From positions 23,174 to 87,173 of the forward strand of contig DISH01000004.1 in assembly GCA_002421665.1 (NCBI GenBank): a stretch of DNA of 64,000 bases, given 5' to 3'. The notes under the pieces are model-generated. The model worked only from the letters and a program-made list of their open reading frames with translations, ran no database searches and was not told the DNA's origin. Of the stretch, positions 1,949 to 41,194 are shown in pieces (position 1 is the stretch's first letter; every line of letters starts with the position of its first letter). The position numbers were made by a program, and so were the translations under genes. This stretch comes from Candidatus Omnitrophica bacterium UBA6215 (lineage in GTDB: Bacteria > Omnitrophota > Gorgyraeia > Pluralincolimonadales > Pluralincolimonadaceae).

Positions 1949-3013
1949 ATGAAATACAAAATGGATCTCGTAAGCCCCGCCGTTTTCATCGGCAAACAGG
2001 GCAAGGGAGTCATAAGTTTCGGTTCCGGGCAGCCGGACCTGCCTCCGCCCAAAGAGGCCATACAGGGAATAGATATCCGTAAGGACCTTAGGTACGGCCT
2101 GATACAGGGAGAATACCCGCTCAGAGAGGCGCTGTCCAATGAATACCCGAATTCCACCGCGGATAATTTTGTCATAACCAACGGCGCCTCCGAAGCGCTT
2201 GACCTGATCTTCCGCGCGTGGGGCAAGGGGAAAGTGCTGCTCCCGAAGCCGTATTATTATTCTTACCTGCCGCTTGTGGAAATGGCGGGCATGGAGCCGG
2301 TATTCACCGATCTTGTAGAAGGCAGGATAGATATAGATGACTTCAAGAAGAAGATAAAAGGCTGCAAGGCGGTCCTGATAAATTCCCCGTCGAACCCTAC
2401 GGGCCGTGTCGAATTGATAGAGACCCTGAAAGAGATAGAGAAGATAACCGCTAAACTCGGCGTGTATGTCATCTCCGACGAAGTCTATAAGGACCTGATA
2501 TACGAGAGGGAGAACTACCATATAAAGGGCGGGCACGTCATTACGGTAAATTCCTTCTCTAAGACCTATGCCATGTGCGGGGTAAGGGTAGGTTACCTTT
2601 GGAGTTCCGACAAAAAAGTGGTCGATGATGTCATCGAGCTCAAGACCCACACCTCGATGAACACGAACCTCGTCGGGCAGGATATGGCCCTCAGGGCGAT
2701 GGCCGTCCCCAAAAAATACGTGATAGACCAGAAGGAGATATGGCGCAAGCGGAGGGACAGGATATACAACGGTTTCTGCGAGCTCGGTTTTGACCTGTGG
2801 CGGCCCGAGGGGGCTTTTTACATATTCCCGAAATGCAGGAACGCTAGGGAATTCCTCGCCACGCTGTTCCTGAAATATAAGGTGATATTCTATCTGGGGG
2901 AGTGGTTCGGCGCACCCGACCGTATCAGGCTCAGCTATGCCCTTGATGAGGCCCAGATAGACAAGGGGCTGGAGTGTATAAAGGCGGCGATGAAGAAGGT
3001 ACGGTGCCTCTAA
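1949..3013 (+). CDS. class I/II pyridoxal-phosphate-dependent aminotransferase
   Basis: NSPSNPTG and SFSKTYAMCGVRVGY (PLP-lysine) motifs typical of aspartate/aromatic aminotransferases. Confidence 0.85.
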   Translation: MKYKMDLVSPAVFIGKQGKGVISFGSGQPDLPPPKEAIQGIDIRKDLRYGLIQGEYPLREALSNEYPNSTADNFVITNGASEALDLIFRAWGKGKVLLPKPYYYSYLPLVEMAGMEPVFTDLVEGRIDIDDFKKKIKGCKAVLINSPSNPTGRVELIETLKEIEKITAKLGVYVISDEVYKDLIYERENYHIKGGHVITVNSFSKTYAMCGVRVGYLWSSDKKVVDDVIELKTHTSMNTNLVGQDMALRAMAVPKKYVIDQKEIWRKRRDRIYNGFCELGFDLWRPEGAFYIFPKCRNAREFLATLFLKYKVIFYLGEWFGAPDRIRLSYALDEAQIDKGLECIKAAMKKVRCL

Positions 3014-5180: not shown

Positions 5181-6770
5181 ATGCAGCGTTCGGAAGAGGA
5201 AAAGAGTTATGAAGCCCTGAGCCCGTTCGAATTAAAGAACAAGCTGATCAGTATGGCCGAGACGAACCGCGAAAGGATCATGCTGAATGCCGGAAGGGGC
5301 AATCCCAACTGGGTCGCGATAGCGCCCAGGGAGGGGTTCCTGCAATTCGGAATGTTTGCGCTATCCGAGTCCCAGCGTTCGCCCCACAGGCCCGGGTTGG
5401 GGACGGTCGCGCAGAAAGAAGGGATATCAGAAAGGTTCAGGAGTTTCCTGGCCGGCAAGAAAGGGGAGCCGGGCATAGAGTTCCTGTCCGGCGCATTTGA
5501 ATATGTCACCGGGGATATGAAGATAAACGGCGACGAATTCCTGAACGAGATGGTCGATGCCACCCTCGGCGACCACTATCCTACGCCCGACAGGATGCTT
5601 GAGATCTGCGAAAGAATAGTACACAGGTACCTTGAACAGGAGATGCTGGGTTTTGCGCCTGTCGGAAGGTTCGACCTGTTTGCCACCGAAGGCGGTACCG
5701 CAGCGATGGATTATATCTTCACGAGCCTGTCCGAGAATAAGCTCATACATAAAGGCGATAAGATAGCGCTGGGTACGCCGATATTCACTCCCTATCTTGA
5801 GATACCCAGGCTTAACGATTATGAACTTGTCGAATTGGAGATAAAACAGGACGAGAATTCGGACTGGCAATATCCCGATTCGGAGATCGAAAAGCTGGCC
5901 GATCCTTCCGTCAAGGCATTCTTCCTGGTAAACCCCTCTAACCCGACATCCGTAAGCGTCCAAAGACGATCGCTCGATAAGGTAGCGGAACTGGTAGATA
6001 CGCGCCGGAAAGACCTTATAATACTTACCGACGATGTATACGGTACTTTTGTTGACGGTTTCAGGTCCCTGGCCGCGGTTGCCCCGCGCAATACGATCCT
6101 GGTCTATTCTTATTCCAAATATTTCGGAGCCACCGGGTGGCGTCTCGGTGTAATAGGCATACATGAGGACAGCGTCTTTGATAAGCGGATAGCCGCACTT
6201 CCGGCCTATGACAGGGAAGAACTGCATGCCCGCTATTGTACCGTCGAGCTCGATCCCGACAACATGAAGCTTATCGACCGTATGGTAGCGGATTCGCGTT
6301 CCGTGGCCTTGCACCATACCGCGGGGCTCTCTACGCCGCAGCAGGTGATGATGGTGATGTTCTCCCTGCAATGCCTCATGGACAAGGAAGGCAACTACAA
6401 GAAGTTGACGCAGGATATCGTCAAGAAACGCTTCGAGGCCCTTTATTCCGCTCTTGGGGTAAAGGCCCCGGACGACGAATATGACGCGCGTTATTATACG
6501 ACTATCGATATACCCGAACTGGCCGGAGTCAGATACGGGGCGGATTTCGCGGATTATATGACCGGGAATTTCGAGCCTATAGATTTTGTCTGGCGCTTGG
6601 CGGAAGAGAAATCTATAGTGCTCATGGACGGCGGAGGTTTTGATGCCCCCAATATGTCTGTAAGGGTCTCGCTGGCCAATCTCGATGACAGCGACTATAC
6701 GCAGATAGGCAAAGGAATAAGCGAATTGCTAGAGGACTATTATATGACCTGGAAAGGGTCCAAAAAGTAG
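5181..6770 (+). CDS. asdA: aspartate 4-decarboxylase (aspartate aminotransferase family)
   Basis: About 529 aa. LSPFELKNKLI N-terminus, NPSNPTS and YSYSKYFGATGWRLG motifs match AsdA/AspD. AAGGAG SD precedes ATG 5181 (ORF track starts at in-frame 5139). Confidence 0.8.
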   Translation: MQRSEEEKSYEALSPFELKNKLISMAETNRERIMLNAGRGNPNWVAIAPREGFLQFGMFALSESQRSPHRPGLGTVAQKEGISERFRSFLAGKKGEPGIEFLSGAFEYVTGDMKINGDEFLNEMVDATLGDHYPTPDRMLEICERIVHRYLEQEMLGFAPVGRFDLFATEGGTAAMDYIFTSLSENKLIHKGDKIALGTPIFTPYLEIPRLNDYELVELEIKQDENSDWQYPDSEIEKLADPSVKAFFLVNPSNPTSVSVQRRSLDKVAELVDTRRKDLIILTDDVYGTFVDGFRSLAAVAPRNTILVYSYSKYFGATGWRLGVIGIHEDSVFDKRIAALPAYDREELHARYCTVELDPDNMKLIDRMVADSRSVALHHTAGLSTPQQVMMVMFSLQCLMDKEGNYKKLTQDIVKKRFEALYSALGVKAPDDEYDARYYTTIDIPELAGVRYGADFADYMTGNFEPIDFVWRLAEEKSIVLMDGGGFDAPNMSVRVSLANLDDSDYTQIGKGISELLEDYYMTWKGSKK

Positions 6771-6779
6771 GAGGCCTGT

Positions 6780-8468: not shown

Positions 8469-8489
8469 ACCATTATCAAAGGAGGAAGT

Positions 8490-24584: not shown

Positions 24585-24962
24585 ATGTCCGGTGACAAAA
24601 GGACCATCCTGGTCGTAGAAGACGACCCCCTGAGCATGAGATTGACCGTTGACCTGCTCCAGGCCAACGGTTTCAACACTTTGGACTGCCGCGACGGGAC
24701 CGCCGCGCTTGAAACGCTCAAGGCATCCTCTCCCGATATGATACTGCTAGATATCAATATGCCGGGGATGAGCGGTTTTGAGGTCCATGAAAAAATAAGG
24801 CAGGACAGGCGTTTTGACGGTATCAAGGTCATCGCACTGTCCGCGTCCGTCATGAAAGAGGAAGAGGACAGGATAAGGAAAGCGGGCTTCAGTGATTTCG
24901 TCCCCAAACCGCTTGACACAAAAGGCCTTGTCAGGAAGATAAAGGAGTATCTCGGCGAATGA
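24585..24962 (+). CDS. response regulator, receiver domain only
   Basis: ILVVEDDP...MILLDINMPGMSGFEV receiver motifs; no output domain. Confidence 0.85.
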   Translation: MSGDKRTILVVEDDPLSMRLTVDLLQANGFNTLDCRDGTAALETLKASSPDMILLDINMPGMSGFEVHEKIRQDRRFDGIKVIALSASVMKEEEDRIRKAGFSDFVPKPLDTKGLVRKIKEYLGE

Positions 24963-26080
24963 GAGATGACCTGGAGATCCAATACCGCGAACTGATGGAA
25001 AATGCCAACAGCATCATACTGCGGATGGATACGAAAGGCAACGTGACATATTTTAACAGGTTCGCGGAGAACTTCTTCGGTTTCAGGCAGGAAGATATCC
25101 TCGGAAAGAACGTCATAGGCACGATAGTCGCCCCGGCCGACCTCTCCGGGAAAGACCTGCGGGCCATGATAGATGACCTCGTGCACCACCCCTCCACTTA
25201 CATGAGCAATGAGAACGAGAATATCCTCCGGAGCGGGAAGCGCGTATGGATATCGTGGACGAACAAGGCGATACTCGACGAAGACGGAAGGCCTGTAGAA
25301 GTGCTGGCCATAGGGAATGATATAACGAAGCTCAAGGAAGCCGAGGCGCAGATATTGAAGGCGAAAGAAGCCGCCGAAAGCGCCAATAAAGCAAAGAGCT
25401 CTTTCCTGGCGAACATGTCGCACGAACTCAGGACCCCGCTCAATGCCATAATCGGTTTTTCGGAATTAATGAAGGACGGGACTGCCGGGCCGCTGAACGA
25501 AAAACAAAAAGAATATATAGGTTATGTATGGGAGAGCGGCAAGCACCTGCTGTCTCTCATTAACGATATCCTTGACCTTTCGAAAATAGAAGCGGGCAAA
25601 ATGGAACTTGAGCTCGGCGAGTTCGACCTCAGGGACCTGATAAAGAAAAGCCTTACGTTCGTATCCGAAAGGGCAAATAAGCACGGAATAAGCCTTTTGA
25701 CCGAGATAGCCGGCGGCGTGGGCACGGTCAGGGCCGATGAACGCAAGGTCAAGCAGGTAGTCTTCAACCTGTTATCCAACGCCATGAAATTTACGCCTGA
25801 CGGCGGCAAGATCGGTATCGAGGCAAAGGAAGATGCCGGCATGGTCAAGGTCTGTGTTTGGGATACGGGCATAGGCATAGAGGACTCGGACAAGGGAAAG
25901 GTTTTTTCCGAGTTCGAACAGATAGACAGCGAATATTCGCGCAAATATGCCGGTACGGGTTTAGGTATGCCGCTTAGCAGGAAGTTTATCGAGCTGCACG
26001 GCGGGAAGATGTGGTTTGAGAGCGAAGGCAAAGGCAAGGGCACACGTTTTTATTTTACTCTGCCGTTCCGGGCAGGTTAA
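24959..26080 (+). CDS. PAS-domain sensor histidine kinase (cytoplasmic)
   Basis: PAS domain, H-box SHELRTPLN, HATPase N/G boxes; no TM segments. Confidence 0.85.
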   Translation: MRDDLEIQYRELMENANSIILRMDTKGNVTYFNRFAENFFGFRQEDILGKNVIGTIVAPADLSGKDLRAMIDDLVHHPSTYMSNENENILRSGKRVWISWTNKAILDEDGRPVEVLAIGNDITKLKEAEAQILKAKEAAESANKAKSSFLANMSHELRTPLNAIIGFSELMKDGTAGPLNEKQKEYIGYVWESGKHLLSLINDILDLSKIEAGKMELELGEFDLRDLIKKSLTFVSERANKHGISLLTEIAGGVGTVRADERKVKQVVFNLLSNAMKFTPDGGKIGIEAKEDAGMVKVCVWDTGIGIEDSDKGKVFSEFEQIDSEYSRKYAGTGLGMPLSRKFIELHGGKMWFESEGKGKGTRFYFTLPFRAG

Positions 26081-28007: not shown

Positions 28008-28682
28008 GTGAGGAGAAGATCGTTTAGCGCCGTAATATTGGTCGCCTTGTCTGTTGCGACCTGCCAGGCATCGCCTGCTGCCATATCCAGGGGGGAGAAG
28101 ATATCCTATTGCGTAAGCCCCGCAGGCAACGCGGAATACGAAGACATGGGGCTAGTGGATTACCGCGGCAGGACCTATTGGCTTGTCACTTTTCGGACTT
28201 CGCTTACCGGTTTCAACGACCTGGAGAAGATATACGCCGATCCGGATACCGGCATGCCGTTGATAGTAGAAAGGGATGTGCGTTGGCCTCTTAACAGGGA
28301 GTTCCTTGTGGAAGAGTATGATTCCCGGAACAATTCCCTTGTGGTCAAGAAATACCAGAATAACAAGATTTCCGATGAGTTAAAGTTCACCTCTAACGGG
28401 CCGTACCATAATGCGATACTGCTGCCTTTTTACCTGCGCCGCGTAAAGGACCTTCATGTGGGCTGGAGCATGGTCGTCCGTTTGCGCGAGGAATATACCG
28501 TTACCCTGGTAGGTATTGACGAGATAAAAGTCAACAATGCCAGGATGGCCGCTTACCACTTTACGAGCAAACCGGAGAAGTTCGAAATATGGGTAAGCAG
28601 GGATGATGAGCGTTTGCCCGTGCTTATAAAAGGAACGGTCGGGTGCAGTCTTTCGATGCTTCGCCATTCCGGCGCGGACTAA
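28008..28682 (+). CDS. secreted hypothetical protein (DUF3108-like?)
   Basis: GTG start, signal peptide, no recognised catalytic motifs. Confidence 0.45.
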   Translation: MRRRSFSAVILVALSVATCQASPAAISRGEKISYCVSPAGNAEYEDMGLVDYRGRTYWLVTFRTSLTGFNDLEKIYADPDTGMPLIVERDVRWPLNREFLVEEYDSRNNSLVVKKYQNNKISDELKFTSNGPYHNAILLPFYLRRVKDLHVGWSMVVRLREEYTVTLVGIDEIKVNNARMAAYHFTSKPEKFEIWVSRDDERLPVLIKGTVGCSLSMLRHSGAD

Positions 28683-28705
28683 AAAAGGACGGGGATCTGT
28701 CTATC

Positions 28706-29965
28706 ATGAAAAAACTCTGTATTCCGGCGGTATTAGCTGCCCTTGCGCTGGTATCCCCGGTTGGCGCGGAAATCGCCTTTAACGCCTCAGACAGGGTGCT
28801 TGTGCTTGCCCCGCATCCCGATGATGAAGCTATAGGCGCCGCCGGCGCGATTAAACGGGCCGTTGATGCCGGCGCTTCGGTCAATGTCGTTTGCCTGACA
28901 AACGGCGATAACAACGAGATAGCTTTTCTTGTATATAAGAAACACCCCGTTCTGTCTTCCAAGGGCCTTATAAGGATGGGAGAGGCCAGAAGAAGAGAGA
29001 CGATAGCTGCCATGGACTCTATGGGTATCGCCGAGAACAATATCAGTTTCCTGGGCTATCCCGATTTCGGCACTCTTGCTATATTCACCGGATACTGGGG
29101 CGATACAAAGCCGTACGAAGCTATGCTTACCAAACAGAAGAAAGTACCGTATCCCGAGGCAGTCTCTTTCGGGGCCCCTTACGTGGGCGAGAGTATCCTT
29201 AAAGACATAAAACAGGTATTGACCGGTTACAAGCCGACCGTTATATTCGTATCGAACCCGGCCGATTCCAATTCCGACCATAAAGCGCTCTACCTTTTCT
29301 TGCGTGTTGCCTTGTGGGACCTGGAGGGATCAATGGGGCCTGTTAAGGTCTATCCATATATAGTGCATGTTTCCGGCTGGCCGGCGCCGAAGGGTTACCA
29401 CCCGGCGATGGACCTCAAGGCCCCGGCAGAGTTGAGGAGCCTTTCGTGGGAGACCGTCGGTCTTTCCGGTACCGAGATAGACTCAAAGCATACGGCCATA
29501 TCGAAATACAGGAGCCAGATCGAATACGACCCGCCGTACCTTTTCTCTTTCGCAAGGAAGAATGAGCTTTTTGGGGATTATCTCCCGCTTTACCTTGGAA
29601 GCGGTCTTAGTAACGGTTTATACAGGCTGGCCGGGGACAGGTTATTGATAACCATCCAGCAGGCAAGCGGTGATGATAAGGACAGGGACTTTACCGTGTA
29701 TTTAGCGGGATACAGGAAGGGAGAGGATTTTTCCCGGATGCCGAAACTTCATATAAGGATAGACCAGGACGGGCTTCATTGCAGGGACAAATACTGCCGT
29801 TTATATGCTAAGGATATTTCCCTGACGGAATCGGGCAGGAGCTTGACGATTAGCGTCCCGCTCTCGACCTTGGGCTTTCCGGACCGCGTTCTGGCCCATG
29901 TATCGGGCAGGACAGAGAAGATGGCGGCGGATGATACCAACTGGCGCGTTCTGGAACTCGAATGA
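28706..29965 (+). CDS. PIG-L/LmbE-family deacetylase, secreted, with C-terminal extension
   Basis: Signal peptide MKKLCIPAVLAALALVSPVGA. VLVLAPHPDDEAIGAAG zinc-deacetylase motif. Confidence 0.7.
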   Translation: MKKLCIPAVLAALALVSPVGAEIAFNASDRVLVLAPHPDDEAIGAAGAIKRAVDAGASVNVVCLTNGDNNEIAFLVYKKHPVLSSKGLIRMGEARRRETIAAMDSMGIAENNISFLGYPDFGTLAIFTGYWGDTKPYEAMLTKQKKVPYPEAVSFGAPYVGESILKDIKQVLTGYKPTVIFVSNPADSNSDHKALYLFLRVALWDLEGSMGPVKVYPYIVHVSGWPAPKGYHPAMDLKAPAELRSLSWETVGLSGTEIDSKHTAISKYRSQIEYDPPYLFSFARKNELFGDYLPLYLGSGLSNGLYRLAGDRLLITIQQASGDDKDRDFTVYLAGYRKGEDFSRMPKLHIRIDQDGLHCRDKYCRLYAKDISLTESGRSLTISVPLSTLGFPDRVLAHVSGRTEKMAADDTNWRVLELE

Positions 29966-29975
29966 GGGGCTTGTA

Positions 29976-31013
29976 ATGAAGAAGGATACCAGGGAATACG
30001 AGATAGGGAATAAAAACGTGGACAAGCTGATAGACCGGCTTACGTGCGAATCCTGTTCTCGCGAGACCGAATATCTTATCAGGGAGATACTGACGACCGC
30101 GGTTAAATTGGGCATGGAGTCCGGCGATGAAGGGGACCTGAAACTTGTAAATAATGCGCTTAAGGAATTGCGATATTCGTTCAAGATATTCACCCCTTAC
30201 AGGGACGTGAAGAAGGTCATAATATTCGGGTCGGCGAGGACCAGGAAGACCTCGCCGGAGTATAAAACGGCCGAGATCTTTGCCAGGAAGATGACTGACA
30301 AAGGATATATGATAGTTACCGGAGGCGGGCCGGGTATCATGGAGGCGGGCAATAAAGGGGCCAGGGCGGGTAAGGAATTCGCGCTCAATATCAGGCTTCC
30401 TTTTGAACAGAAGCCGAACCCGTTCATCTACGAAAAGAACAAGATAATCAATTTCAAGTATTTCTTTACCAGGAAACTCGTATTCATCAAGGAGACGGAT
30501 GCTACCGTCCTGTTTCCCGGCGGGTTCGGTACCAACGACGAAGGTTTCGAAATGCTGACTCTCGTACAGACGGGCAAGTCCAGGCCCAGACCGATAGTCA
30601 TGATGGAACCCGAGGGTTCCTCGTATTGGACACAGTGGAAGCGTTTTGTACGGGACCAACTGGAAGGCAACGGGTTCATAGATAAAGAAGACCTCAGCCT
30701 GTTCCGTATAGCCAGGACCGCCGATGAAGCCGCCGGGTATATCGAGGGTTTTTATAAAGTCTATCATTCGATACGCTACGTTTCGGGTCTTACGGTCCTC
30801 AGGTTGAACAAGAAACTCTCGAGCTCCGCGCTGGACAGGCTGAACAGGGATTTCAGGGACATCCTCACCAAAGGGGAGATAGGGCTTTCGCCTCCGACCG
30901 ATAAAGAGGTCCGCAGCAACGAGTATCTTGGCCTTCCCAGGCTGATAATGAACTTCAACATGCGCAATTACGGAAGGCTCTATGAGATGATAGAGGTCAT
31001 AAACAGGAGCTGA
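29976..31013 (+). CDS. LOG-family (TIGR00730) Rossmann protein, long form (PpnN-like nucleotide 5'-monophosphate nucleosidase?)
   Basis: IIFGSARTRK...GGGPGIMEAGNKGA...PGGFGTNDE LOG motifs, with N- and C-terminal extensions. Confidence 0.65.
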   Translation: MKKDTREYEIGNKNVDKLIDRLTCESCSRETEYLIREILTTAVKLGMESGDEGDLKLVNNALKELRYSFKIFTPYRDVKKVIIFGSARTRKTSPEYKTAEIFARKMTDKGYMIVTGGGPGIMEAGNKGARAGKEFALNIRLPFEQKPNPFIYEKNKIINFKYFFTRKLVFIKETDATVLFPGGFGTNDEGFEMLTLVQTGKSRPRPIVMMEPEGSSYWTQWKRFVRDQLEGNGFIDKEDLSLFRIARTADEAAGYIEGFYKVYHSIRYVSGLTVLRLNKKLSSSALDRLNRDFRDILTKGEIGLSPPTDKEVRSNEYLGLPRLIMNFNMRNYGRLYEMIEVINRS

Positions 31014-32145: not shown

Positions 32146-32169
32146 AAAACCTTGCCATAGCGGCAGATA

Positions 32170-32199
32170 GCCACTATAATGAAAACAGTGGCATTTTTT
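32170..32199 (+). terminator. candidate Rho-independent terminator
   Basis: GCCACT-11 nt loop-AGTGGC followed by ATTTTTT, 25 nt after the radical SAM stop. Confidence 0.4.
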
Positions 32200-32302
32200 A
32201 AAGGGTCCGGGAACAGCAACGTTCCCGGAGGGATTTGATGGTCGGGCCGCCATCTCTGTTGTAATATAGGGAAGGCGTTTTTTATTTTAGGGAGGTTTTA
32301 TC

Positions 32303-33358
32303 ATGTCTGAGAAGATCTTAACGAGCCTTAACGGATTATCCGTATATATCCTGCCCGTAGGAGTATGTCTGGTTACGGTCATTCTGGGTTATATTGTCAG
32401 GAGCGTGATATTCAGGAGATTCCTGCACTGGGCGAGCAAAACCAAGACCGATATAGACGACATAATAATAATTTCGACAAGGACACCGTTCTTGGTATGG
32501 TGCCTTATGCTTGGCATATATTTCGGCCTGGAAGTCTCCCATATACCGAAGGAATGGGTAAGGGTATGCGGCAAGGCCCTTTTCGTTTTGGGTTCCCTCT
32601 CGGTCATGATGGTCCTCTCTAATATCTCCGCCAGATTCATAGCGGCGCGGTCCGCCAAGTTCGAATCGGCGCTCCCGGTAACTTCTCTTACCCAGAATGT
32701 AAGCCGTATAGTGATATTCGGCATAGGTCTGCTCCTTATACTCAATACGCTGGGCATAGCGATAACCCCGATACTGGCTACTTTGGGAGTTGGAGGTCTT
32801 GCCGTGGCCCTGGCGCTCCAGGATTCGTTATCCAACCTGTTTGCAGGGTTCCACATAGTTGCTTCCCGGCAGATCAAGATAGGCGACTACGTGAGGCTCG
32901 AAAGCGGGGAAGAAGGCTATGTTTCCGATATAACCTGGAGAAGCACAAAGATAAGGATGCTCGCGAACAACGTGATCCTTGTCCCGAATGCCAAACTGAC
33001 GCAGGTTATCACTACCAATTATTACCTTCCCGAAAAGGAGATGGCCGTGCTCGTGAACCTTGGGGTCCATTACGGCAGCGACCTTAAGAAAGTCGAAAGG
33101 GTTACCTGCGAAGTAGCCAGGGAAGTAATGAAAGAGGTGACCGGAGGCGTAGAAGGGTTCGAGCCGTTCATCCGTTACCATACATTCGGTGATTTCAGCA
33201 TAAATTTCAGTGTAATAATGAGGGCCAGAGAGTTCGTGGACCAGTACCTTATAAAACATGAGTTTGTTAAGAGACTCCACGAGAGGTATAATAAGGAAGG
33301 TATAGTGATACCATATCCGATAAGGGCGATCAATAACGAACAGGAAAGGACCCGGTAG
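32303..33358 (+). CDS. MscS-family mechanosensitive channel
   Basis: TM domain plus the conserved IKIGDYVRL...VILVPNAKL beta-domain. Confidence 0.85.
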   Translation: MSEKILTSLNGLSVYILPVGVCLVTVILGYIVRSVIFRRFLHWASKTKTDIDDIIIISTRTPFLVWCLMLGIYFGLEVSHIPKEWVRVCGKALFVLGSLSVMMVLSNISARFIAARSAKFESALPVTSLTQNVSRIVIFGIGLLLILNTLGIAITPILATLGVGGLAVALALQDSLSNLFAGFHIVASRQIKIGDYVRLESGEEGYVSDITWRSTKIRMLANNVILVPNAKLTQVITTNYYLPEKEMAVLVNLGVHYGSDLKKVERVTCEVAREVMKEVTGGVEGFEPFIRYHTFGDFSINFSVIMRAREFVDQYLIKHEFVKRLHERYNKEGIVIPYPIRAINNEQERTR

Positions 33359-33359
33359 C

Positions 33360-35594
33360 ATGAGACGTATCCTGCTATTCGTTTTGCCTATACTCATAAT
33401 CGCCGCGACCATATTTACCGTCTTCGGCATCTTCCAGGTCAACTTCGAGGAAAGCAAGCTGATGGATGACCTGCAAAGGAAAGCCAGGACCGTTGCAGAA
33501 AGCACCGAGCTCTCGGCCCGGTATATCCTGCTGAACAACGACCTCAGGTCAGCTAACCGTCTTACCGAGAGTTTCCAGAAGAGGGAAAGGCTGCAAGGTT
33601 GTGTCATATACGACAAGGCCGGTAATATCGTCTCAATAACCTCAAGGATATCGGATTGGGGCCACAAGGACAAGCCTTACATAAAGGAGACCCTGGAGAG
33701 CGGGGTCCCCAGGGCCGCTATGGAGAAGTTCAGGGAATATTCCGTTTACAGCTACGTCCTGCCTATACTCGACGATGATAAGAACGTCCTTGGGATCGTA
33801 GAGGTAATATATGACACTTCTTACGTCTTCTCGATCCTGACCGAGTTATGGAAGCACATAAGCACCGCCCTGATAACCCTCGTGGTATCGATAGCCCTTA
33901 TCGCCCTTTTGCTCCAAAGGCAGATATTCATATTGCCTATCCTGCAGTTGACGGAGTGGTTCCACAGTTTCCAGAAGGGCGAGACCGATGCGCAGCATCC
34001 CATAATAAAAGAGAAAGGCGCTTTCGGTAAACTTGCAAGTGAAGTAGAGCAGATAGCCCTGAGCCTGAGGATCGCGCGCAAGACCATCTCCGATAAAGCG
34101 CAGGTACGCCTGCAGAAAGAAGAACTCTGGACCGAGGACAAACTCAAGAACCTCGTTCTTGCCAAGCTTGGAGAGAATGCCCTCTACGTGGTATCGAACA
34201 GGGAGCCGTATATGCATGTCATCGAGGATGCTACCGGCAAGGCTAAATGCATCCGTCCGGCAAGCGGTGTTGTTACGGCGATAGATCCTATAATGCGCGC
34301 CTGCGGCGGGACATGGATAGCCCATGGTAGCGGTAACGCCGACAGGAAGTTCGTCAATTCCAAGAATAAGCTTCCGGTCCCTCCCGAGGACAACCGTTAT
34401 ATCCTGAAAAGGGTATGGCTGTCCAAGGAAGAGGAGCAGGGATACTATTACGGTTTTTCCAACGAGGGGCTTTGGCCGCTTTGTCATATAACGCATACGC
34501 GCCCGGTCTTCAGGGACGAGGATTGGGAGATGTATAAGAAGGTCAACCAGAAGTTTGCGGATGCCGTCCTGGAAGAACTGCCGTCCAAGAACCCGTTCGT
34601 GTTCATACAGGATTACCATTTTACCCTGTTGCCCAAGATGATAAAAGAGAAACAGCCGAATGCCACCATTGCGCTCTTTTGGCATATACCGTGGCCCAAC
34701 CCAGAGATATTCGCCACGTGCCCTTACCAAAAGCAGATACTCGACGGCATGTTGGGGTGCGACCTGATAGGGTTCCATGTCCAGTTCCACTGCAACAACT
34801 TCCTGGATACGGCGAACAGGTTCCTAGAATCGAGAGTGGATACCGAGAGGTTCGCCATAGTCCGCGCAGGGAAAGAGACCCTTGTCCGGGCGTTCCCGAT
34901 AAGCGTTGATAACTTCATGGAAGAGAAGGCGAAACAGGATGTAGCGGATGCGAAGAGCCTGATAGAAGAATTCGAGCTCAAGGACAAGATAGTAGCGGTT
35001 GGCGTAGAGAGGATAGATTACACAAAGGGTCTCGTCGAGAGGATAACCGCCGTAGACCGTTTCCTCGAGAAGTATCCCCAGTATAAACGTAAATTCGTAA
35101 TGGTACAGCTCGCGGCGCCCAGCAGGACCCATATCAAGCGCTACCATGACTTGATGGCAGAGATAGACGAGGCTGTCGAAAAGGTCAACTGGAAGCATTC
35201 GGACGGCAGCTGGAAGCCTATAATATACCTGAAGAAGCATTTTTCGCCCGAAGAGATAAAGCCTTATTTCGCAATGGCGGATATATGCATGGTCAGCTCG
35301 CTTCACGACGGGATGAACCTTGTAGCAAAGGAATATGTCATATCGAACAAGGAAATGAACGGTGTATTGATATTGAGCCGTTTCACGGGCGCAGCAAAGG
35401 AGTTGGCCGACGCGGTCCAGGTAAACCCGTATTCCATCGAAGAGTTCTCGGACGCGATAAAGACGGCTATAGAGATGCCGGCCGAAGAGAAGAGGAAACG
35501 CATGGAGAACATGCGCAATATAGTAAAAGAGAACAATATATATAAGTGGGCCGGCAGCATAATGACCGAGCTAACCTCTTTGAAGAAGGAATGA
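33360..35594 (+). CDS. otsA: membrane sensor (TM-Cache-like-TM-HAMP-like) fused to alpha,alpha-trehalose-phosphate synthase (GT20, OtsA)
   Basis: C-terminal about 470 aa is GT20 with hallmark ALFWHIPWPNPEIF. N-terminal about 270 aa has two TM helices flanking an extracytoplasmic domain and an amphipathic HAMP-like linker. Confidence 0.8.
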   Translation: MRRILLFVLPILIIAATIFTVFGIFQVNFEESKLMDDLQRKARTVAESTELSARYILLNNDLRSANRLTESFQKRERLQGCVIYDKAGNIVSITSRISDWGHKDKPYIKETLESGVPRAAMEKFREYSVYSYVLPILDDDKNVLGIVEVIYDTSYVFSILTELWKHISTALITLVVSIALIALLLQRQIFILPILQLTEWFHSFQKGETDAQHPIIKEKGAFGKLASEVEQIALSLRIARKTISDKAQVRLQKEELWTEDKLKNLVLAKLGENALYVVSNREPYMHVIEDATGKAKCIRPASGVVTAIDPIMRACGGTWIAHGSGNADRKFVNSKNKLPVPPEDNRYILKRVWLSKEEEQGYYYGFSNEGLWPLCHITHTRPVFRDEDWEMYKKVNQKFADAVLEELPSKNPFVFIQDYHFTLLPKMIKEKQPNATIALFWHIPWPNPEIFATCPYQKQILDGMLGCDLIGFHVQFHCNNFLDTANRFLESRVDTERFAIVRAGKETLVRAFPISVDNFMEEKAKQDVADAKSLIEEFELKDKIVAVGVERIDYTKGLVERITAVDRFLEKYPQYKRKFVMVQLAAPSRTHIKRYHDLMAEIDEAVEKVNWKHSDGSWKPIIYLKKHFSPEEIKPYFAMADICMVSSLHDGMNLVAKEYVISNKEMNGVLILSRFTGAAKELADAVQVNPYSIEEFSDAIKTAIEMPAEEKRKRMENMRNIVKENNIYKWAGSIMTELTSLKKE

Positions 35595-36394
35595 TGGTAT
35601 ATCTTTTCTCGCGCGAAGAAGAGATAAGGAAACGGATAGCAAAAAATTTCGTCTATCTATTCCTGGATTACGACGGCACGCTTACGCCTATAGCAGATAC
35701 GCCCGACAAGGCCCTGTTACCCGATGGTACGCGCAGCCTGTTGCGCGAGCTATCTAAGGTGCGCGGATGCAGACTGGCGGTAATAAGCGGAAGGTCTCTT
35801 AAAGATATAAAGAGGATGATCGGGCTGGAAGGCATAGTGTATTCAGGTAACCATGGGCTCGAGATAGACGGGCCGAAGCTCAAGTTCGAAAGCGTGGTTC
35901 CGCCCGGTTTCAAGAAGCTGATCAAGGATATAAAGTCCGCGCTGCGCATCAGGCTTGCGGGGGTAGACGGGCTGATATTTGAAGACAAGGGCCATACCTT
36001 AAGCGTCCATTACCGTATGGCGGACAGCCGTCAAATGCCTTTGGTGAAATCGGTTTTCCGTGAGATTACGGCTTGTCATTTGGCCGGCGGCAAGATAAAG
36101 ATAAAGACCGGGAAGATGATGCTGGAAGTCCGGCCTCCAATAGAATGGGACAAGGGCCGGTCAGTAATGTGGCTGCTCGCGAGGCAGAAGTTCATATCGC
36201 CGGAGGAACCGGTGATGCCGGTATACATAGGCGATGATGTGACCGATGAGGACGCGTTCTCTGCCCTGGGGAACAGGGGGTTGACGGTTTTTGTCGGCAA
36301 ACCCGGTAAGTCCGGAGCGAAATATTACCTGAAAGACCATAATGATGTAACGAAATTCCTGGGGTTGGTCAGGGACATCAAGAAGGCGGGATAA
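35592..36394 (+). CDS. otsB: trehalose-6-phosphate phosphatase (HAD, OtsB)
   Basis: FLDYDGTLTPIA motif I and GDDVTDE motif; start overlaps the otsA stop. Confidence 0.85.
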
Positions 36395-36395
36395 T

Positions 36396-37067
36396 ATGCA
36401 GGAACTGCAGAAAGCTAAAGAGCCGTTCGTATTTTATACCAGGATGCACTTATCCGAGCTTACGGGCCTGAGGGCTTCGACGCTCAACCAATTGTTACAG
36501 CTGGTCAAGGAGGTCAACGGTTCATGCATTTACCATCATACCCACAGGTTCCTCCAACAGCACCAGCACCTTTCTCCGGAACCTCCCAACGATTTTGCCT
36601 ACTGGGTGACCGAGGTCCTGGGTGAGGATGAACTTGGCGAGAAGCTGGCCAGCATAGACGTGATACAGTTCAACACGATCCGCAGCCTTAGGGAAAAGAT
36701 AGCCGAGACCATAGAATCATACCTTGCCGAGAACCCGATGGCCAAGGTCAGGTTTTCGAAAGAGAACGAGGAATTCCATTTCATGAAATCGATAAGTTTC
36801 GTCATGCCTACGAAATATGTCGCCCATGACCTTAACGATTTCGTGGAGATACTCGGGAAGATAACCATAGATTCCATATATTACCATATCTTCGAATCAC
36901 GCCTAAGGCTCGAAAAGAACGCGAACGATTTCAGCAACTGGTTCCTGACCTCTCTGGGCGATGACCGGCTTGCCGCGGAGATATCGAAACTTGATCCTTA
37001 CACGTTTACGCTTGAAGGGCTGAGGAACAGGGTCATACGCATAGTCAAAATAAGGATAGATTCCTGA
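36396..37067 (+). CDS. hypothetical protein with internal tandem repeat, embedded in the trehalose operon
   Basis: Two about 45-aa repeats (NDFAYWVTEVLGEDELGEKLASIDVIQF... and NDFSNWFLTSLGDDRLAAEISKLDPYTF...). 2-nt gaps to both neighbours. Confidence 0.5.
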   Translation: MQELQKAKEPFVFYTRMHLSELTGLRASTLNQLLQLVKEVNGSCIYHHTHRFLQQHQHLSPEPPNDFAYWVTEVLGEDELGEKLASIDVIQFNTIRSLREKIAETIESYLAENPMAKVRFSKENEEFHFMKSISFVMPTKYVAHDLNDFVEILGKITIDSIYYHIFESRLRLEKNANDFSNWFLTSLGDDRLAAEISKLDPYTFTLEGLRNRVIRIVKIRIDS

Positions 37068-37069
37068 AG

Positions 37070-38281
37070 ATGGCAAAAATAGAGGAATATATACCTATAG
37101 TCGGCCAGCCTATAATAGACGACCTGAGGCTGTTGGCCGAGAAGCTCAGCGGCAAGGTGGTCCAGAACATCAACTCCACTTCGGTCGGCGGCGGCGTAGC
37201 CGAGATACTTAACAGGATGGTCCCCCTGCTTAAGGAGCTGGGTGTCGACGCGCGCTGGGACCTTATAAAAGGGGGAGAGCAGTTTTTCGAGGTTACCAAG
37301 AAATTCCATAACGCGTTACACGGGGTGAATATCGAGGTCTCGAAAGAGGATTTCGACGTTTTTCTCGAGACAAGCCGGACGAACATGAATGAGATGAACC
37401 TTTACGGGGATATAGTTTTTGTCCATGACCCCCAGCCCGTGGCGCTTGTCGACAAGAAACAGGACAAGAAATGGGTCTGGCGCTGTCATGTGGACGTATC
37501 CGAACCCAGCGAGGAGGTCTGGCAGTTCCTCAGGGGCTTTATTGACAAGTACGATTCCGCGGTATTTTCGGCGCCGGCGTTTTCCCAGAAGTTGCCCATA
37601 AGGCAGTTCCTGATATCTCCTTCGATCGACCCGTTGAGCGACAAGAACAAGGAACTGCCGCAGGAGACGATCGACGCGGTTCTCAGGAAATACGGCATCC
37701 CGTCCGATAAGCCTATAGTAACCCAGATATCGCGTTTCGACAGGCTAAAGGACCCGTTGGGCGTCATTAAGGTGTATAAACAGGTAAAGAGATATTCCGA
37801 TTTCAGGCTCATCCTTGCCGGAGGCGGCGCCACTGACGATCCCGAGAGCGCCGAGGTCCTTTTAGAGGTCAGGGAGGCTGCGAAAGACGACCCCGACATA
37901 CACGTCCTGCTGCTGGCGCAAAACGACATAGAGATAAATGCCTTACAAAGGGCCTCTACCGTAATAATGCAGAAGTCCATAAGAGAAGGTTTCGGTCTGA
38001 CCGTTTCCGAAGCTTTGTGGAAGTCCAAACCTATGGTTGCCTCGAATGTCGGCGGCATACCCCTGCAGATCGCCCACAAATATTCCGGCCTGTTATGCAA
38101 TTCGATAGAAGGGGCAAGTTTCGCCCTCAAACAGCTGCTCAACAGCCCGGATTACGCTCGCAGGCTCGGCGAGAACGGCAGGGAGCACGTAAAGAACAAT
38201 TTCCTCATAACCCGCCATCTCAAGGAGTACATGCTCCTGTTCCTTTCGCTTTACCACGCCGAAGATGTAGTCTACTTATGA
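37070..38281 (+). CDS. treT: trehalose glycosyltransferring synthase (TreT, GT4)
   Basis: N-terminus NSTSVGGGVAEILNRMVPLLKELGVDARWDLIKG...FFEVTKKFHNALHG closely matches archaeal/bacterial TreT. Confidence 0.75.
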   Translation: MAKIEEYIPIVGQPIIDDLRLLAEKLSGKVVQNINSTSVGGGVAEILNRMVPLLKELGVDARWDLIKGGEQFFEVTKKFHNALHGVNIEVSKEDFDVFLETSRTNMNEMNLYGDIVFVHDPQPVALVDKKQDKKWVWRCHVDVSEPSEEVWQFLRGFIDKYDSAVFSAPAFSQKLPIRQFLISPSIDPLSDKNKELPQETIDAVLRKYGIPSDKPIVTQISRFDRLKDPLGVIKVYKQVKRYSDFRLILAGGGATDDPESAEVLLEVREAAKDDPDIHVLLLAQNDIEINALQRASTVIMQKSIREGFGLTVSEALWKSKPMVASNVGGIPLQIAHKYSGLLCNSIEGASFALKQLLNSPDYARRLGENGREHVKNNFLITRHLKEYMLLFLSLYHAEDVVYL

Positions 38282-39408
38282 CAGTAACAGGGTCCGCCGA
38301 TATAGCCGTTATAGGCGCGGGCGTCGTAGGACTTGCTGTATCCTCGAAACTGGTTTCGTCGGGCCGCGAGGTATTCCTTATCGAGAGGCACGATTCCTTT
38401 GGCCGCGAAACGAGTTCCAGGAACAGTGAAGTTATACACGCGGGTATTTATTATCCCGCGGACTCCCTGAAGAGAAAAACTTGTGTCGAAGGCAATAGGC
38501 TGCTTTACGAGTATTGCGCGCAGAACCGCATCCCGCACAGGAAGACAGGCAAGCTTATAGTTGCTGCCAGCGAAGACGAGGTGCCGGACCTCAAGGCCCT
38601 TTTAGAGAAGGGCATAGGCAACGGCGTTGCAGGGCTGGAGATGCTCTCCAAGAAAGATATAGGCGGCATGGAGCCGGAAATTCGCGCTGCCGCGGCGATA
38701 TTTTCCCCGGATACAGGCATCATCGATACGCATTCTCTCATGAAAGACCTCGAGCGCAAATTCAAGGGCGGCGGGGGGACCCTTTCCTATAATACCGATG
38801 TCCGTTCCATAGAGAAGACAAAAGGCGGATATAAGGTAACCGTAAATGATGCCGACGGCAGCTTGACCGTCCTGCAGGCCAGAGTCCTTGTCAATTGCGC
38901 AGGGCTTGATTCGGGGAGGATCGCCGCAATGACAGGACTTGATATCCCTGAATACAGGATAAGACCGTGCAAAGGCGATTATTTTCGCCTGAACCCGTCG
39001 AAGGCAAAGCTTATCGGCCGCCTTGTGTATCCCGTGCCAAAAAAGAAAGGCGCCGGCCTGGGGATACACGCGACACCCGATCTCGGGGGAGGGGTAAGGT
39101 TGGGTCCGGACGAGGAGTATGTCTATAATATAGATTATAAAGTAGATGTTTCGAAGAGCAATGATTTTTACGAAAGCGTAAAGACTTTCCTTCCGTTTAT
39201 TACGCCGGACGACCTGAGCCCGGACACTTCGGGAATAAGGCCGAAACTCCAGGGACCGGGAGAAGATTTCAGGGATTTCGTGATAAGGGAGGAATCAGAC
39301 AGGGGATATCCCGGCCTGGTCGACCTTATCGGTATAGAATCGCCCGGCCTGACCGCGTGCCTTTCCATAGCCTGCATCGTCAAAAAAATTCTTGATACCA
39401 TAGATTGA
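38278..39408 (+). CDS. FAD-dependent oxidoreductase, L-2-hydroxyglutarate oxidase/dehydrogenase (LhgO) family
   Basis: IAVIGAGVVGLA dinucleotide fold and SRNSEVIHAGIYYP motif. ATGA overlap with treT. Confidence 0.7.
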   Translation: MTVTGSADIAVIGAGVVGLAVSSKLVSSGREVFLIERHDSFGRETSSRNSEVIHAGIYYPADSLKRKTCVEGNRLLYEYCAQNRIPHRKTGKLIVAASEDEVPDLKALLEKGIGNGVAGLEMLSKKDIGGMEPEIRAAAAIFSPDTGIIDTHSLMKDLERKFKGGGGTLSYNTDVRSIEKTKGGYKVTVNDADGSLTVLQARVLVNCAGLDSGRIAAMTGLDIPEYRIRPCKGDYFRLNPSKAKLIGRLVYPVPKKKGAGLGIHATPDLGGGVRLGPDEEYVYNIDYKVDVSKSNDFYESVKTFLPFITPDDLSPDTSGIRPKLQGPGEDFRDFVIREESDRGYPGLVDLIGIESPGLTACLSIACIVKKILDTID

Positions 39409-39427
39409 ATTCACTATAATATCACCT

Positions 39428-41194
39428 ATGTCTACACCTCTGAAAAAATGGGTCGAAGAACAAGCCAAGCTCACCAAACCCGACAGGATAATCTGGTGCG
39501 ACGGTTCCGAAGAAGAGACCCGCAGGATACTTGAGATAGGGATCAAGGAAGAGAAGATCGACGGGCATCCCGTCTTCAGGGAACTTAACCAGAAGACCTG
39601 GCCGGGCGCTTATTACCATATGAGCCACCACACGGATGTCGCTCGTACGGAGCACCTGACCTTTGTCTGCCATCCCGATAAGGATACGGCCGGCCCTAAC
39701 AATAACTGGATGGATCCCGGCGAGGCCAAGGCCCTTTTGACCAAAGTCTCCGACGGCTGCATGAAAGGAAAGACGATGTATGTCCTTCCTTACATGATGG
39801 GCCATCCGGATTCGCCTTATGCCAAGGCATGCATCCAGATCACAGATGTCTCATATGTCGCGGTAAGTATGCGCATCATGACCCGCATGAGCAAGAAGGT
39901 CATAGACAAGATAGGCGACCGCCACGATTTCGTCAAAGGTCTGCATTCGGTAGGTGACTTCGACCCGGCAAAAAGGTACATAATGCATTTCCCGGACGAG
40001 CATTTTGTGTGGAGCATAGGTTCCGGTTACGGCGGCAACGCCTTGCTGGGCAAGAAATGTTTTTCGTTAAGGCTCGCGTCGTGGCTGGGTTACCAGGAAG
40101 GATGGCTTGCGGAACATATGGTCATCCTGGGAGTCGAGAGCCCGGAAGGGGAGACCACTTATATTACGGCGGCCATGCCTTCGGCTTGCGGAAAGACGAA
40201 CCTTGCTATGCTCGAGTCCGCGCTGCCGGGTTACAAGATCCGGACCATAGGCGACGATATTGCGTGGCTCAACATAGGCCCGGACGGCAAGCTTTATGCA
40301 ATAAATCCCGAAACGGGGCTCTTTGGGGTCGCCCCGGGGACATCGAAGAAGACCAACCCTAATATGCTTAAGACCCTTAAGGGCAGAAAATTCTTTCCTA
40401 CGCTTTTTACCAATACCGCTTTGGATACCGATAAGAACGAACCGTGGTGGGAAGGCCTTGACGGCCCCGTACCGGATAACCTGTTGGATTGGCAGGGGCA
40501 TGCCTGGAAGCCCGGCAGTGAAAAGAAGGCCGCGCACCCGAATTCCCGTTTTACCGCGTCGATATATAATTGCCCGATGCTTTCGAAAGAATTCGACAAT
40601 CCTTCGGGAGTGCCGATATCCGCAATAATTCTCGGCGGGCGCAGGACGCATCTTATACCGCTTGTTACCGAGGCGTTGAACTGGGAGCAGGGCGTGTTCC
40701 TTGGCGCCAGGACGGGTTCCGAGACTACAGCCGCGGCCGCGCATAAAGTCGGCGTGCTCCGCAGGGACCCCATGGCCATGCTTCCTTTCTGCGGATACAA
40801 TATGGGCGACTATTTCAGCCATTGGCTGAATATAGGCCGTCGCATGCATAACCCCCCGAAGATCTTCGCCGTTAACTGGTTCAGGACGAACGATGAAGGC
40901 AAGTTCATGTGGCCGGGCTTTGGCGAGAATATACGCGTCCTGAAATGGGTGATCGAGAGGGTAAACGATAAAGTAAAGGCGAAAGAGACCCCGATAGGCC
41001 TTGTCCCTTACGCGAAGGACCTTGATTTGACGGGCCTTGATATATCCAAGAAAGACCTGAATAAATTGCTCGAGACGGACGCAGATGAGTGGGGAGCCGA
41101 ATTGGACGACATCGAAGCCTTCTTCAATAAGTTCGGCGACCGGCTTCCTGACGAGTTACGCCGGCAGCTCAAGGCATTAAGGGCGGCTTTCTGA
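39428..41194 (+). CDS. pckG: phosphoenolpyruvate carboxykinase (GTP)
   Basis: 588 aa; kinase-1a AMPSACGKTNLAML; typical N-terminus. Confidence 0.9.
   Translation: MSTPLKKWVEEQAKLTKPDRIIWCDGSEEETRRILEIGIKEEKIDGHPVFRELNQKTWPGAYYHMSHHTDVARTEHLTFVCHPDKDTAGPNNNWMDPGEAKALLTKVSDGCMKGKTMYVLPYMMGHPDSPYAKACIQITDVSYVAVSMRIMTRMSKKVIDKIGDRHDFVKGLHSVGDFDPAKRYIMHFPDEHFVWSIGSGYGGNALLGKKCFSLRLASWLGYQEGWLAEHMVILGVESPEGETTYITAAMPSACGKTNLAMLESALPGYKIRTIGDDIAWLNIGPDGKLYAINPETGLFGVAPGTSKKTNPNMLKTLKGRKFFPTLFTNTALDTDKNEPWWEGLDGPVPDNLLDWQGHAWKPGSEKKAAHPNSRFTASIYNCPMLSKEFDNPSGVPISAIILGGRRTHLIPLVTEALNWEQGVFLGARTGSETTAAAAHKVGVLRRDPMAMLPFCGYNMGDYFSHWLNIGRRMHNPPKIFAVNWFRTNDEGKFMWPGFGENIRVLKWVIERVNDKVKAKETPIGLVPYAKDLDLTGLDISKKDLNKLLETDADEWGAELDDIEAFFNKFGDRLPDELRRQLKALRAAF

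Follow-up and report, generated by a model that had tools for sequence, protein, structure and literature searches.

Trehalose is made by way of trehalose-6-phosphate by the products of otsB and otsA, which are usually under transcriptional control, and enzymes joined through a HAMP domain to a transmembrane receptor include class III adenylyl cyclases (e.g. Rv3645), GGDEF cyclases and PP2C phosphatases. In the msc-gt-tpsp operon of Thermoproteus tenax, a family 4 glycosyltransferase (GT4) activates a fusion of trehalose-6-phosphate synthase and phosphatase (TPS-TPP) by complex formation (Zaparty et al. 2013, PMC3634074). At the RNA level, the nhaA-I riboswitch class senses Li+ and rare terminator-bearing variants sense Na+, with ion binding and activation of genes by the ligand shown for some representatives; among 944 nhaA-I-associated genes, otsA was counted 16 times and mscS 3 times, and a possible osmotic role has been suggested for these RNAs (White et al. 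2022, PMC9646797). Here, we describe a locus in a stretch of 64,000 nucleotides (nt) from Candidatus Omnitrophica bacterium UBA6215 (contig DISH01000004.1, positions 23,174 to 87,173; the whole stretch is called the window below), in which one gene encodes a membrane sensor and the trehalose-6-phosphate synthase OtsA as a single polypeptide.

The fusion gene is a single open reading frame (ORF) of 744 codons plus stop, which starts with an ATG preceded by a ribosome-binding site, ends with a TGA at 35592-35594 and lies, as a preliminary description of this DNA had noted, between mscS and otsB (Table 1). From N- to C-terminus, the predicted protein consists of a first transmembrane helix (TM1), a periplasmic single Cache/PDC domain, a second transmembrane helix (TM2), a HAMP domain, a helical linker and a family 20 glycosyltransferase (GT20) domain of the OtsA type. 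AlphaFold2 models of the whole protein (predicted local distance difference test score, pLDDT, 75.6) and of residues 1-270 (pLDDT 83.3) have the same layout, and hydropathy and modelling together bear out the TM-Cache-TM-HAMP topology that the preliminary description had proposed for the N-terminal region. In all of 83 related loci, which come independently from different assemblies (80 from a scan of one genome per species of the Genome Taxonomy Database, GTDB, and 3 others), a single unbroken frame runs through sensor and GT20, so that the fusion is not the product of a frameshift; 69 full-length fusion coding sequences are intact, and the initial methionine is invariant among 70 species-level sequences.

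A database search found the same fusion in hundreds of genomes of Omnitrophota and Acidobacteriota, which rules out a lack of similar fusions in relatives, an outcome that the preliminary description had named as a refutation. Of the database clusters about 744 amino acids (aa) in length, more than 120 are 71-87% identical to the window protein, nearly all of them from metagenome-assembled genomes (MAGs) of Candidatus Omnitrophota, and the closest locus in the GTDB-species scan reaches 98% identity. The sensor is encoded in at least 289 genomes of that scan, mostly Omnitrophota, part of which are filed under placeholder Planctomycetia names; a few sensor-bearing MAGs are labelled Elusimicrobia, Spirochaetes, Nitrospirae or Actinomycetota. 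An equally populous second clade, with proteins of about 755 aa, belongs to the Acidobacteriota, including Terriglobia, Blastocatellia and Acidiferrales, where the fusion is present on a contig of 5.4 Mb. Nearly all clusters bear only the label ‘trehalose-6-phosphate synthase’; in a single JGI label this is extended by ‘uncharacterized membrane protein affecting hemolysin expression’, and automatic ‘HAMP domain-containing’ tags are occasional, so that the family lies hidden in databases under a plain name. The fusion is real, old and common in two phyla. The preliminary description had called it unusual, which holds against the textbook OtsA but not in the sense of rarity, as it is the standard form in hundreds of genomes of these phyla.

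Between the two clades, identity amounts to 52-56% in GT20, 25-35% in HAMP and 18-28% in the periplasmic domain. The residues P135, G145, D152, P193, W200, E228, V229, L236, W257, T258 and L262 are invariant across both clades. Ratios of nonsynonymous to synonymous substitution rates (dN/dS) were estimated by the Nei-Gojobori method from sequence pairs with an amino-acid identity of 80% or more (for each region, 60-86 of 123 pairs); the medians are 0.060 (periplasmic domain), 0.053 (HAMP plus linker), 0.092 (TM2) and 0.043 (GT20), values that are approximate because dS is about 1 and thus near saturation. Purifying selection on the sensor appears nearly as strong as on the enzyme.

The sensor module begins with one of two hydrophobic helices seen as Kyte-Doolittle peaks at about 4-26 and 167-192, the first of which follows an MRR on the cytoplasmic side. 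A cleavable signal peptide in place of TM1 was ruled out, the hydrophobic stretch being about 23 residues long, part of a continuous helix (2-48) and homologous to TM1 of histidine kinases. Cache models match the stretch of roughly 139 residues that separates the helices: on the isolated N-terminus (first 270 residues) dCache_3 scores a marginal 27.2 bits against a gathering threshold of 25.7, with sCache_3_2 and dCache_1 weaker, and on the full-length protein it scores 24.4 bits, under that threshold; among 22 relatives, dCache_1 is found in 16 and sCache_3_2 in 15. In the AlphaFold2 model, helix 2-48 comprises TM1 and the N-terminal PDC helix and is followed by two short helices, the strands 78-85 and 90-93, two further helices and the strands 118-124, 127-137 and 143-152, after which helix 154-205 comprises the C-terminal PDC helix, TM2 and the first amphipathic sequence (AS1) of HAMP. 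This is a PDC fold, in which a long helix at the N-terminus is followed by a five-stranded antiparallel sheet with intervening helices, and it lies between TM1 and TM2 (pLDDT 83). Residues 4-243 align to the N-terminal sensor part of WalK (NCBIfam, E 1.8e-6). With Foldseek, the top match in the PDB is a WalK model that spans TM, sensor, TM and HAMP (E 6e-11, 258 columns), followed by crystal structures of the WalK extracellular domain (4ywz, TM-score 0.76 normalised to the target), KinD, CitA and DcuS (CitA 2j80 and DcuS 3by8 at E 1e-5 to 1e-4), and it is on these matches that the modelled extracytoplasmic domain is identified as a single Cache/PDC domain. The two membrane helices, the domain of about 140 aa with PDC/Cache-like features and the HAMP-like segment had all been anticipated in the preliminary description.

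The 70 species-level sequences have an invariant set of periplasmic residues (R75, E76, R77, Q79, C81, Y84, T94, Y107, R118, E122, Y130, S131, Y132, E148, D152, T153, S154, Y155 and W164), polar and aromatic in the main, which looks like a specific binding or interaction surface and not like a spacer. C81 (nt 33600-33602) is the single periplasmic cysteine; it and the motifs RERLQGC and YDTSY are invariant in these Omnitrophota-type sequences, and the cysteine and both motifs are absent from the Acidobacteriota clade, which may point to a ligand site specific to one clade or to a residue that is redox-sensitive or forms a disulfide. A distant fusion protein of 913 aa (P0226) carries two tandem Cache-like domains before TM2, HAMP and GT20; the sensor part of the family has therefore been remodelled at least once.

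An exhaustive search of 1.84 billion cluster representatives with a profile of the sensor returned 1878 proteins with E-values up to 1e-3, of which 337 reach 1e-10 or better. Among the best 150 matches, 52 are at least 300 residues long, and in 34 of these GT20 follows the module directly. The relatives scanned that lack GT20 are canonical HAMP-HisKA-HATPase kinases or Cache-TM-GGDEF diguanylate cyclases, and two of the kinases carry extra PAS/GAF or receiver domains. By homology, the sensor is a genuine signalling module whose closest relatives outside OtsA are histidine kinases and diguanylate cyclases. The label ‘chemoreceptor-like’ in the preliminary description had to be given up: the module is of the histidine-kinase type, with WalK, CitA and DcuS as its best matches, and Pfam found no MCPsignal domain in the fusion protein, whose output is GT20. 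Membership among the chemoreceptors (MCPs) is ruled out on the same grounds, the relatives being histidine kinases and GGDEF proteins.

The putative HAMP domain consists of an AS1 with invariant P193, W200 and F201, a connector (207-220) and a second amphipathic sequence (AS2) with G223, L225 and E228; in the AlphaFold2 model, a connector after residue 205 leads into helix 221-253, which corresponds to AS2 and its extension. Pfam HAMP matches 11 of 22 close relatives (best E 1.5e-6), and a profile of the fusion family matches Af1503 HAMP structures weakly. Aligned by hhalign with the N-termini of related histidine kinases, the same profile gives a probability of 99.9% (E 5e-31, 241 columns), and ‘P-ILQLTEWFHSFQKGETD...GAFGKLASEVEQIALSL’ falls opposite the kinases’ ‘PI..L......akG.l....DEIG.La..FNqM.edL’, which is the region that Pfam calls HAMP. 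Homology to genuine HAMPs, a helix-connector-helix of about 50 residues after TM2 and the AS1 proline all argue for HAMP identity of residues ~191-240. In the linker that follows, W257, T258 and L262 are kept without exception in both the Omnitrophota and the Acidobacteriota clade.

At the end of the linker begins the GT20 domain, as the preliminary description had placed it (from about 270 residues in, with a HIPWP motif): PF00982 matches residues 275-739 over profile positions 3-472 of 473 (E 5e-124, 415 bits against a cut-off of 32.5), and the motif WHIPWP is found at residues 441-446. The closest solved structure is that of OtsA from Mycolicibacterium thermoresistibile (5jij, E 2.5e-84). 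The top NCBIfam models are a bifunctional synthase/phosphatase, of which the synthase part alone matches, and the OtsA equivalog TIGR02400, both under their equivalog cut-offs; TIGR02400 is the best-scoring single-function model, and its 431.5 bits against a trusted cut-off of 564.85 would fit a divergent OtsA subfamily. A glucosylglycerol-phosphate synthase model also matches (E 1.5e-95). In an alignment with E. coli K-12 OtsA (NC_000913) and three distant fusions, 11 of 11 checked residues are conserved in all of them (R281, G303, Y363, W372, D418, H442, R551, K556, R589, D650 and E658, equivalent to E. coli R9, G22, Y76, W85, D130, H154, R262, K267, R300, D361 and E369); from published structures, we take these E. 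coli positions to be those of glucose-6-phosphate and UDP-glucose binding and of catalysis. Because of these residues and the strong homology to solved OtsA structures, the GT20 domain is predicted to be intact and catalytically complete. Its strand beta1 comprises residues 275-279 in the model, and Arg281 lies two residues past its end.

Upstream of mscS, the window carries an nhaA-I RNA that had been missed in the preliminary description. The match covers model positions 1-55 of 55 and ends 48 nt before the mscS ATG, and a candidate terminator hairpin overlaps the 3' arm of the aptamer stem P2 with its own 5' arm, an arrangement that, judging from the predicted fold, is likely the expression platform of an ON switch. 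With Rfam, 17 of 24 related loci were found to have nhaA-I upstream of the cassette, one of them in two copies about 3.7 kb apart, and 54 of 83 loci contain the 14-nt P2 core, usually 57-120 nt before the start of sensor-otsA or about 1.1 kb before it with mscS in between. By covariance-model match, then, nhaA-I leads the operon in the window and in most Omnitrophota relatives. The preliminary description had set gating at the enzyme level against the usual transcriptional control of OtsA, but control is not shifted from the one to the other: the operon is also led by a riboswitch, and the enzyme-level sensor would therefore add to control at the RNA level.

Table 1. Features of the sensor-otsA locus and its surroundings. 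Coordinates are positions in the window, except for the nhaA-I RNAs of related loci (L001 to L020), which are numbered within each locus.
Feature	Coordinates	Strand	Basis or remarks
Sigma-70-like promoter candidate	32152..32180	+	TTGCCA, 17 nt, TATAAT; 11/12 consensus, consensus match only
nhaA-I RNA aptamer (Rfam RF03057; Li+-I / Na+-II class)	32203..32255	+	51.5 bits against gathering threshold of 37
Candidate intrinsic terminator	32249..32287	+	Hairpin 32249-32276 and U-run; minimum free energy fold of 32181-32310
mscS (small-conductance mechanosensitive channel)	32303..33358	+	Pfam MS_channel first, second and third domains; NCBIfam MscS
Sensor-OtsA fusion gene	33360..35594	+	744 aa and stop; single ORF
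TM1	33369..33437	+	Residues ~4-26; hydropathy; MRR before it
Periplasmic single Cache/PDC domain (predicted)	33447..33854	+	Residues ~30-165; Pfam, Foldseek, dN/dS, invariant residues
TM2	33858..33929	+	Residues ~167-190; hydropathy; within model helix 154-205
HAMP (predicted)	33930..34079	+	Residues ~191-240; hhalign, Pfam in relatives, AlphaFold2 helices
Linker	34080..34181	+	Residues 241-274; AS2 extension, L-W257-T258 turn, helix 259-269 into GT20 beta1
GT20 trehalose-6-phosphate synthase domain	34182..35591	+	Residues 275-744; PF00982
otsB (trehalose-6-phosphate phosphatase)	35591..36394	+	TIGR00685, 172.5 bits against cut-off of 68
DUF5752/OrfY-like	36396..37067	+	PF19027, E 4e-69; conserved cassette member
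treT (trehalose glycosyltransferring synthase, GT4)	37070..38281	+	PF21269; second route to trehalose
Soluble PAS histidine kinase	24959..26080	+	
PIG-L family deacetylase	28643..29965	+	Signal-like N-terminus
LOG/SLOG (lysine-decarboxylase-like) protein	29898..31013	+	
Flavin adenine dinucleotide (FAD)-dependent oxidoreductase	38281..39408	+	Start at treT stop
Guanosine triphosphate (GTP)-dependent phosphoenolpyruvate carboxykinase	39428..41194	+	
nhaA-I in related locus L001	5863..5922		
nhaA-I in related locus L003	528..586		
nhaA-I in related locus L005	4844..4899		
nhaA-I in related locus L016	5903..5957		
nhaA-I in related locus L020, first copy	2206..2266		
nhaA-I in related locus L020, second copy	5894..5954		

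The genes around the fusion form a conserved cassette. The stop of mscS lies 1 nt before the start of otsA, and otsA and otsB are probably translationally coupled, because the likely otsB start (ATG at 35591 or 35594) overlaps the otsA stop (ATGATG). The order sensor-otsA, otsB, DUF5752 gene, treT is complete in 61 of 83 loci, most of the others ending at contig edges, and is the same in Acidobacteriota and in gene-called Omnitrophota loci; mscS stands upstream of or directly after otsA in 32 of 83. The DUF5752 protein matches the PDB entry 4cso, ‘ORFY protein, transcription factor’ (E 1e-23), and in Omnitrophota as in Acidobacteriota its gene is flanked by otsB and treT (at 9182-9832 in the related locus L084). 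The protein could be devoted to TreT and OtsA as their regulator or partner; DUF5752 is nowhere mentioned in the open-access literature searched, which held nothing useful on DUF5752 or OrfY. That the downstream GT4 is an activator like that of T. tenax and not TreT is unsupported, given its close homology to TreT enzymes of solved structure (PDB 6zj4, E 5e-124, and 2x6q, E 7e-101); an additional scaffolding role for TreT is conceivable. At 6524-9888 of a related locus labelled Elusimicrobiota (L003), genes for a DUF1646 protein and a P-type cation ATPase come after the cassette. These are gene types typically linked to Na+ riboswitches, and their presence adds to the sodium theme. The other neighbours listed in Table 1 look ordinary, and no tRNA gene was found in the 64,000-nt window.

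We consider it somewhat probable that the gene product is a single-polypeptide receptor-enzyme under two-tier control, in which an ion riboswitch acts on expression and the receptor module on activity. To the bolder proposal, that a Cache-HAMP sensor allosterically gates a GT-B glycosyltransferase and thus represents a new class of receptor-enzyme, able to respond to an extracellular cue within seconds and set on top of ion-riboswitch control, we give an even chance. In the proposed model, the N-terminus would be cytoplasmic, TM1 would run outward to the periplasmic Cache domain and TM2 back to the cytoplasmic HAMP, and the protein would be dimeric by analogy with its histidine-kinase and diguanylate-cyclase relatives. 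A stimulus in the periplasm or membrane would displace TM2 and switch the packing of the HAMP bundle, and the signal would travel by way of the AS2 extension, and then the LWT turn, to strand beta1 of GT20, where it would change the geometry of the N-lobe near Arg281, the residue that binds glucose-6-phosphate, and turn trehalose-6-phosphate synthesis up or down. OtsB, co-translated, would complete the pathway, with TreT as a parallel route and MscS as a release valve that lets solutes out on osmotic downshift. The nhaA-I riboswitch would turn the operon on as cytoplasmic Na+ or Li+ rises, so that the cytoplasmic cation level would set expression and an extracytoplasmic cue the activity of the enzyme. 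Dimerisation, modulation of catalysis by the sensor, the direction of regulation and the stimulus are all points that we infer; for the last, salt or osmotic stress would be the leading guess and a specific small ligand equally possible.

Several observations weigh against gating of the enzyme by the sensor. Pfam HAMP (PF00672) finds no match in the fusion protein itself at E <= 1, and in the monomer model pLDDT is low where the HAMP extension meets the enzyme (238-254). A precedent for the coupling of HAMP to a glycosyltransferase is not known to us, nor did literature searches turn one up. The poor conservation of the periplasmic domain between the clades means that no single family-wide ligand site can be claimed, the dN/dS values are subject to the near-saturation of dS mentioned above, and nhaA-I was not found at the one Acidobacteriota locus examined, so that the link to salt may be clade-specific. 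The module might no longer signal and serve only as a tether or scaffold that holds OtsA at the inner membrane, for instance beside MscS, or as the core around which a membrane-associated complex of OtsA, OtsB, TreT and OrfY forms, like the T. tenax or yeast complexes. The conserved four-gene cassette does suggest physical cooperation, the TPS-TPP protein of T. tenax is activated by complex formation (PMC3634074), and the strong divergence of the periplasmic domain would also suit a mere anchor. A single transmembrane helix would suffice for this purpose, however, whereas the full TM-Cache-TM-HAMP module has been kept at constant length with dN/dS of ~0.05-0.06, with many invariant polar residues in the periplasmic domain and with invariant residues in HAMP and linker, and we regard a purely anchoring role as unlikely.

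The output could also be something other than trehalose, either because GT20 makes a different product (e.g. glucosylglycerol-phosphate) or because trehalose-6-phosphate acts as an intracellular signal, by analogy with receptor-coupled cyclases. Such sensor modules normally drive second-messenger or phosphorylation outputs, and both the sub-threshold TIGR02400 score and the match to the glucosylglycerol-phosphate synthase model would agree with this. Set against them are the OtsA models, which score highest, the retention of all residues by which OtsA binds glucose-6-phosphate and UDP-glucose, the probably translationally coupled gene for a genuine trehalose phosphatase and the presence of TreT in the same operon, and we hold a different product or a signalling role to be quite improbable. 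We see next to no chance that the fusion is an artefact: frameshifts occur in a few fragmentary database entries and no other support was found, whereas the single frame in all 83 loci and the 69 intact coding sequences rule out a frameshifted or mis-assembled join and a mis-called start, independent sources have yielded hundreds of proteins of 740-760 aa, and both the invariant first methionine and the ribosome-binding site upstream speak for the start assigned. The receptor-enzyme under two-tier control is the reading that we prefer.

If this reading is right, a glycosyltransferase would join the HAMP outputs, which to our knowledge comprise kinases, chemoreceptor arrays, nucleotide cyclases and phosphatases, and the question would arise how a four-helix-bundle switch controls a Rossmann-type GT-B enzyme. 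Osmoadaptation would gain a direct route from receptor to biosynthesis that needs neither a phosphorelay nor new gene expression and that departs from the customary regulation of otsBA by transcription; this would account for the way in which Omnitrophota and Acidobacteriota of soil adjust trehalose to salt or drying. With a riboswitch, a sensor-OtsA, a mechanosensitive channel and a second trehalose pathway, one cassette may hold a circuit to sense, make and release. As uncultivated Omnitrophota and soil Acidobacteriota carry the fusion family in abundance, the way it is regulated may bear on the salt and desiccation tolerance of communities in groundwater, sediment and soil.

Compared with the soluble OtsA enzymes (E. 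coli 1GZ5/1UQT, M. thermoresistibile 5JIJ), the window protein has the same GT-B fold, all of the checked residues and the pairing with otsB, but differs in its 274-residue N-terminal membrane sensor, by which it would be membrane-bound, and in scoring under the OtsA equivalog cut-off; no description of a transmembrane, Cache or HAMP extension on OtsA was found in the literature, open-access papers being covered. With histidine kinases of the WalK, CitA and DcuS type it shares an input module that is homologous over its whole length, whereas its output is a metabolic glycosyltransferase in place of DHp/HATPase, and the system has neither a phosphorelay nor a response regulator. Like the HAMP-coupled enzyme receptors, it joins a transmembrane receptor through HAMP to a catalytic domain in one polypeptide; the enzymes of those receptors make or remove signalling molecules, whereas here the output is a step in compatible-solute biosynthesis, carried out by a GT-B fold and not by a helical-bundle or obligate head-to-head dimer. 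The nearest described system is the T. tenax msc-gt-tpsp operon, which likewise unites a mechanosensitive channel, a GT4 and the TPS/TPP pathway (PMC3634074). Trehalose-6-phosphate synthesis is controlled at the protein level there, as we infer for the window protein, but by a soluble GT4 activator acting on a TPS-TPP fusion; in the window, synthase and phosphatase are encoded separately, the GT4 is truly homologous to TreT and the role of candidate regulator falls to the fused membrane sensor. The nhaA-I RNA of the window is a full-length Rfam match, and its association with otsA and mscS had already been tabulated (White et al. 2022, PMC9646797), but it seems to be of the terminator type, which that study reports only for Na+-responsive deltaproteobacterial variants. 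The association of riboswitch with otsA and mscS is thus already in the literature, and the fusion is a new combination of two well-known modules.

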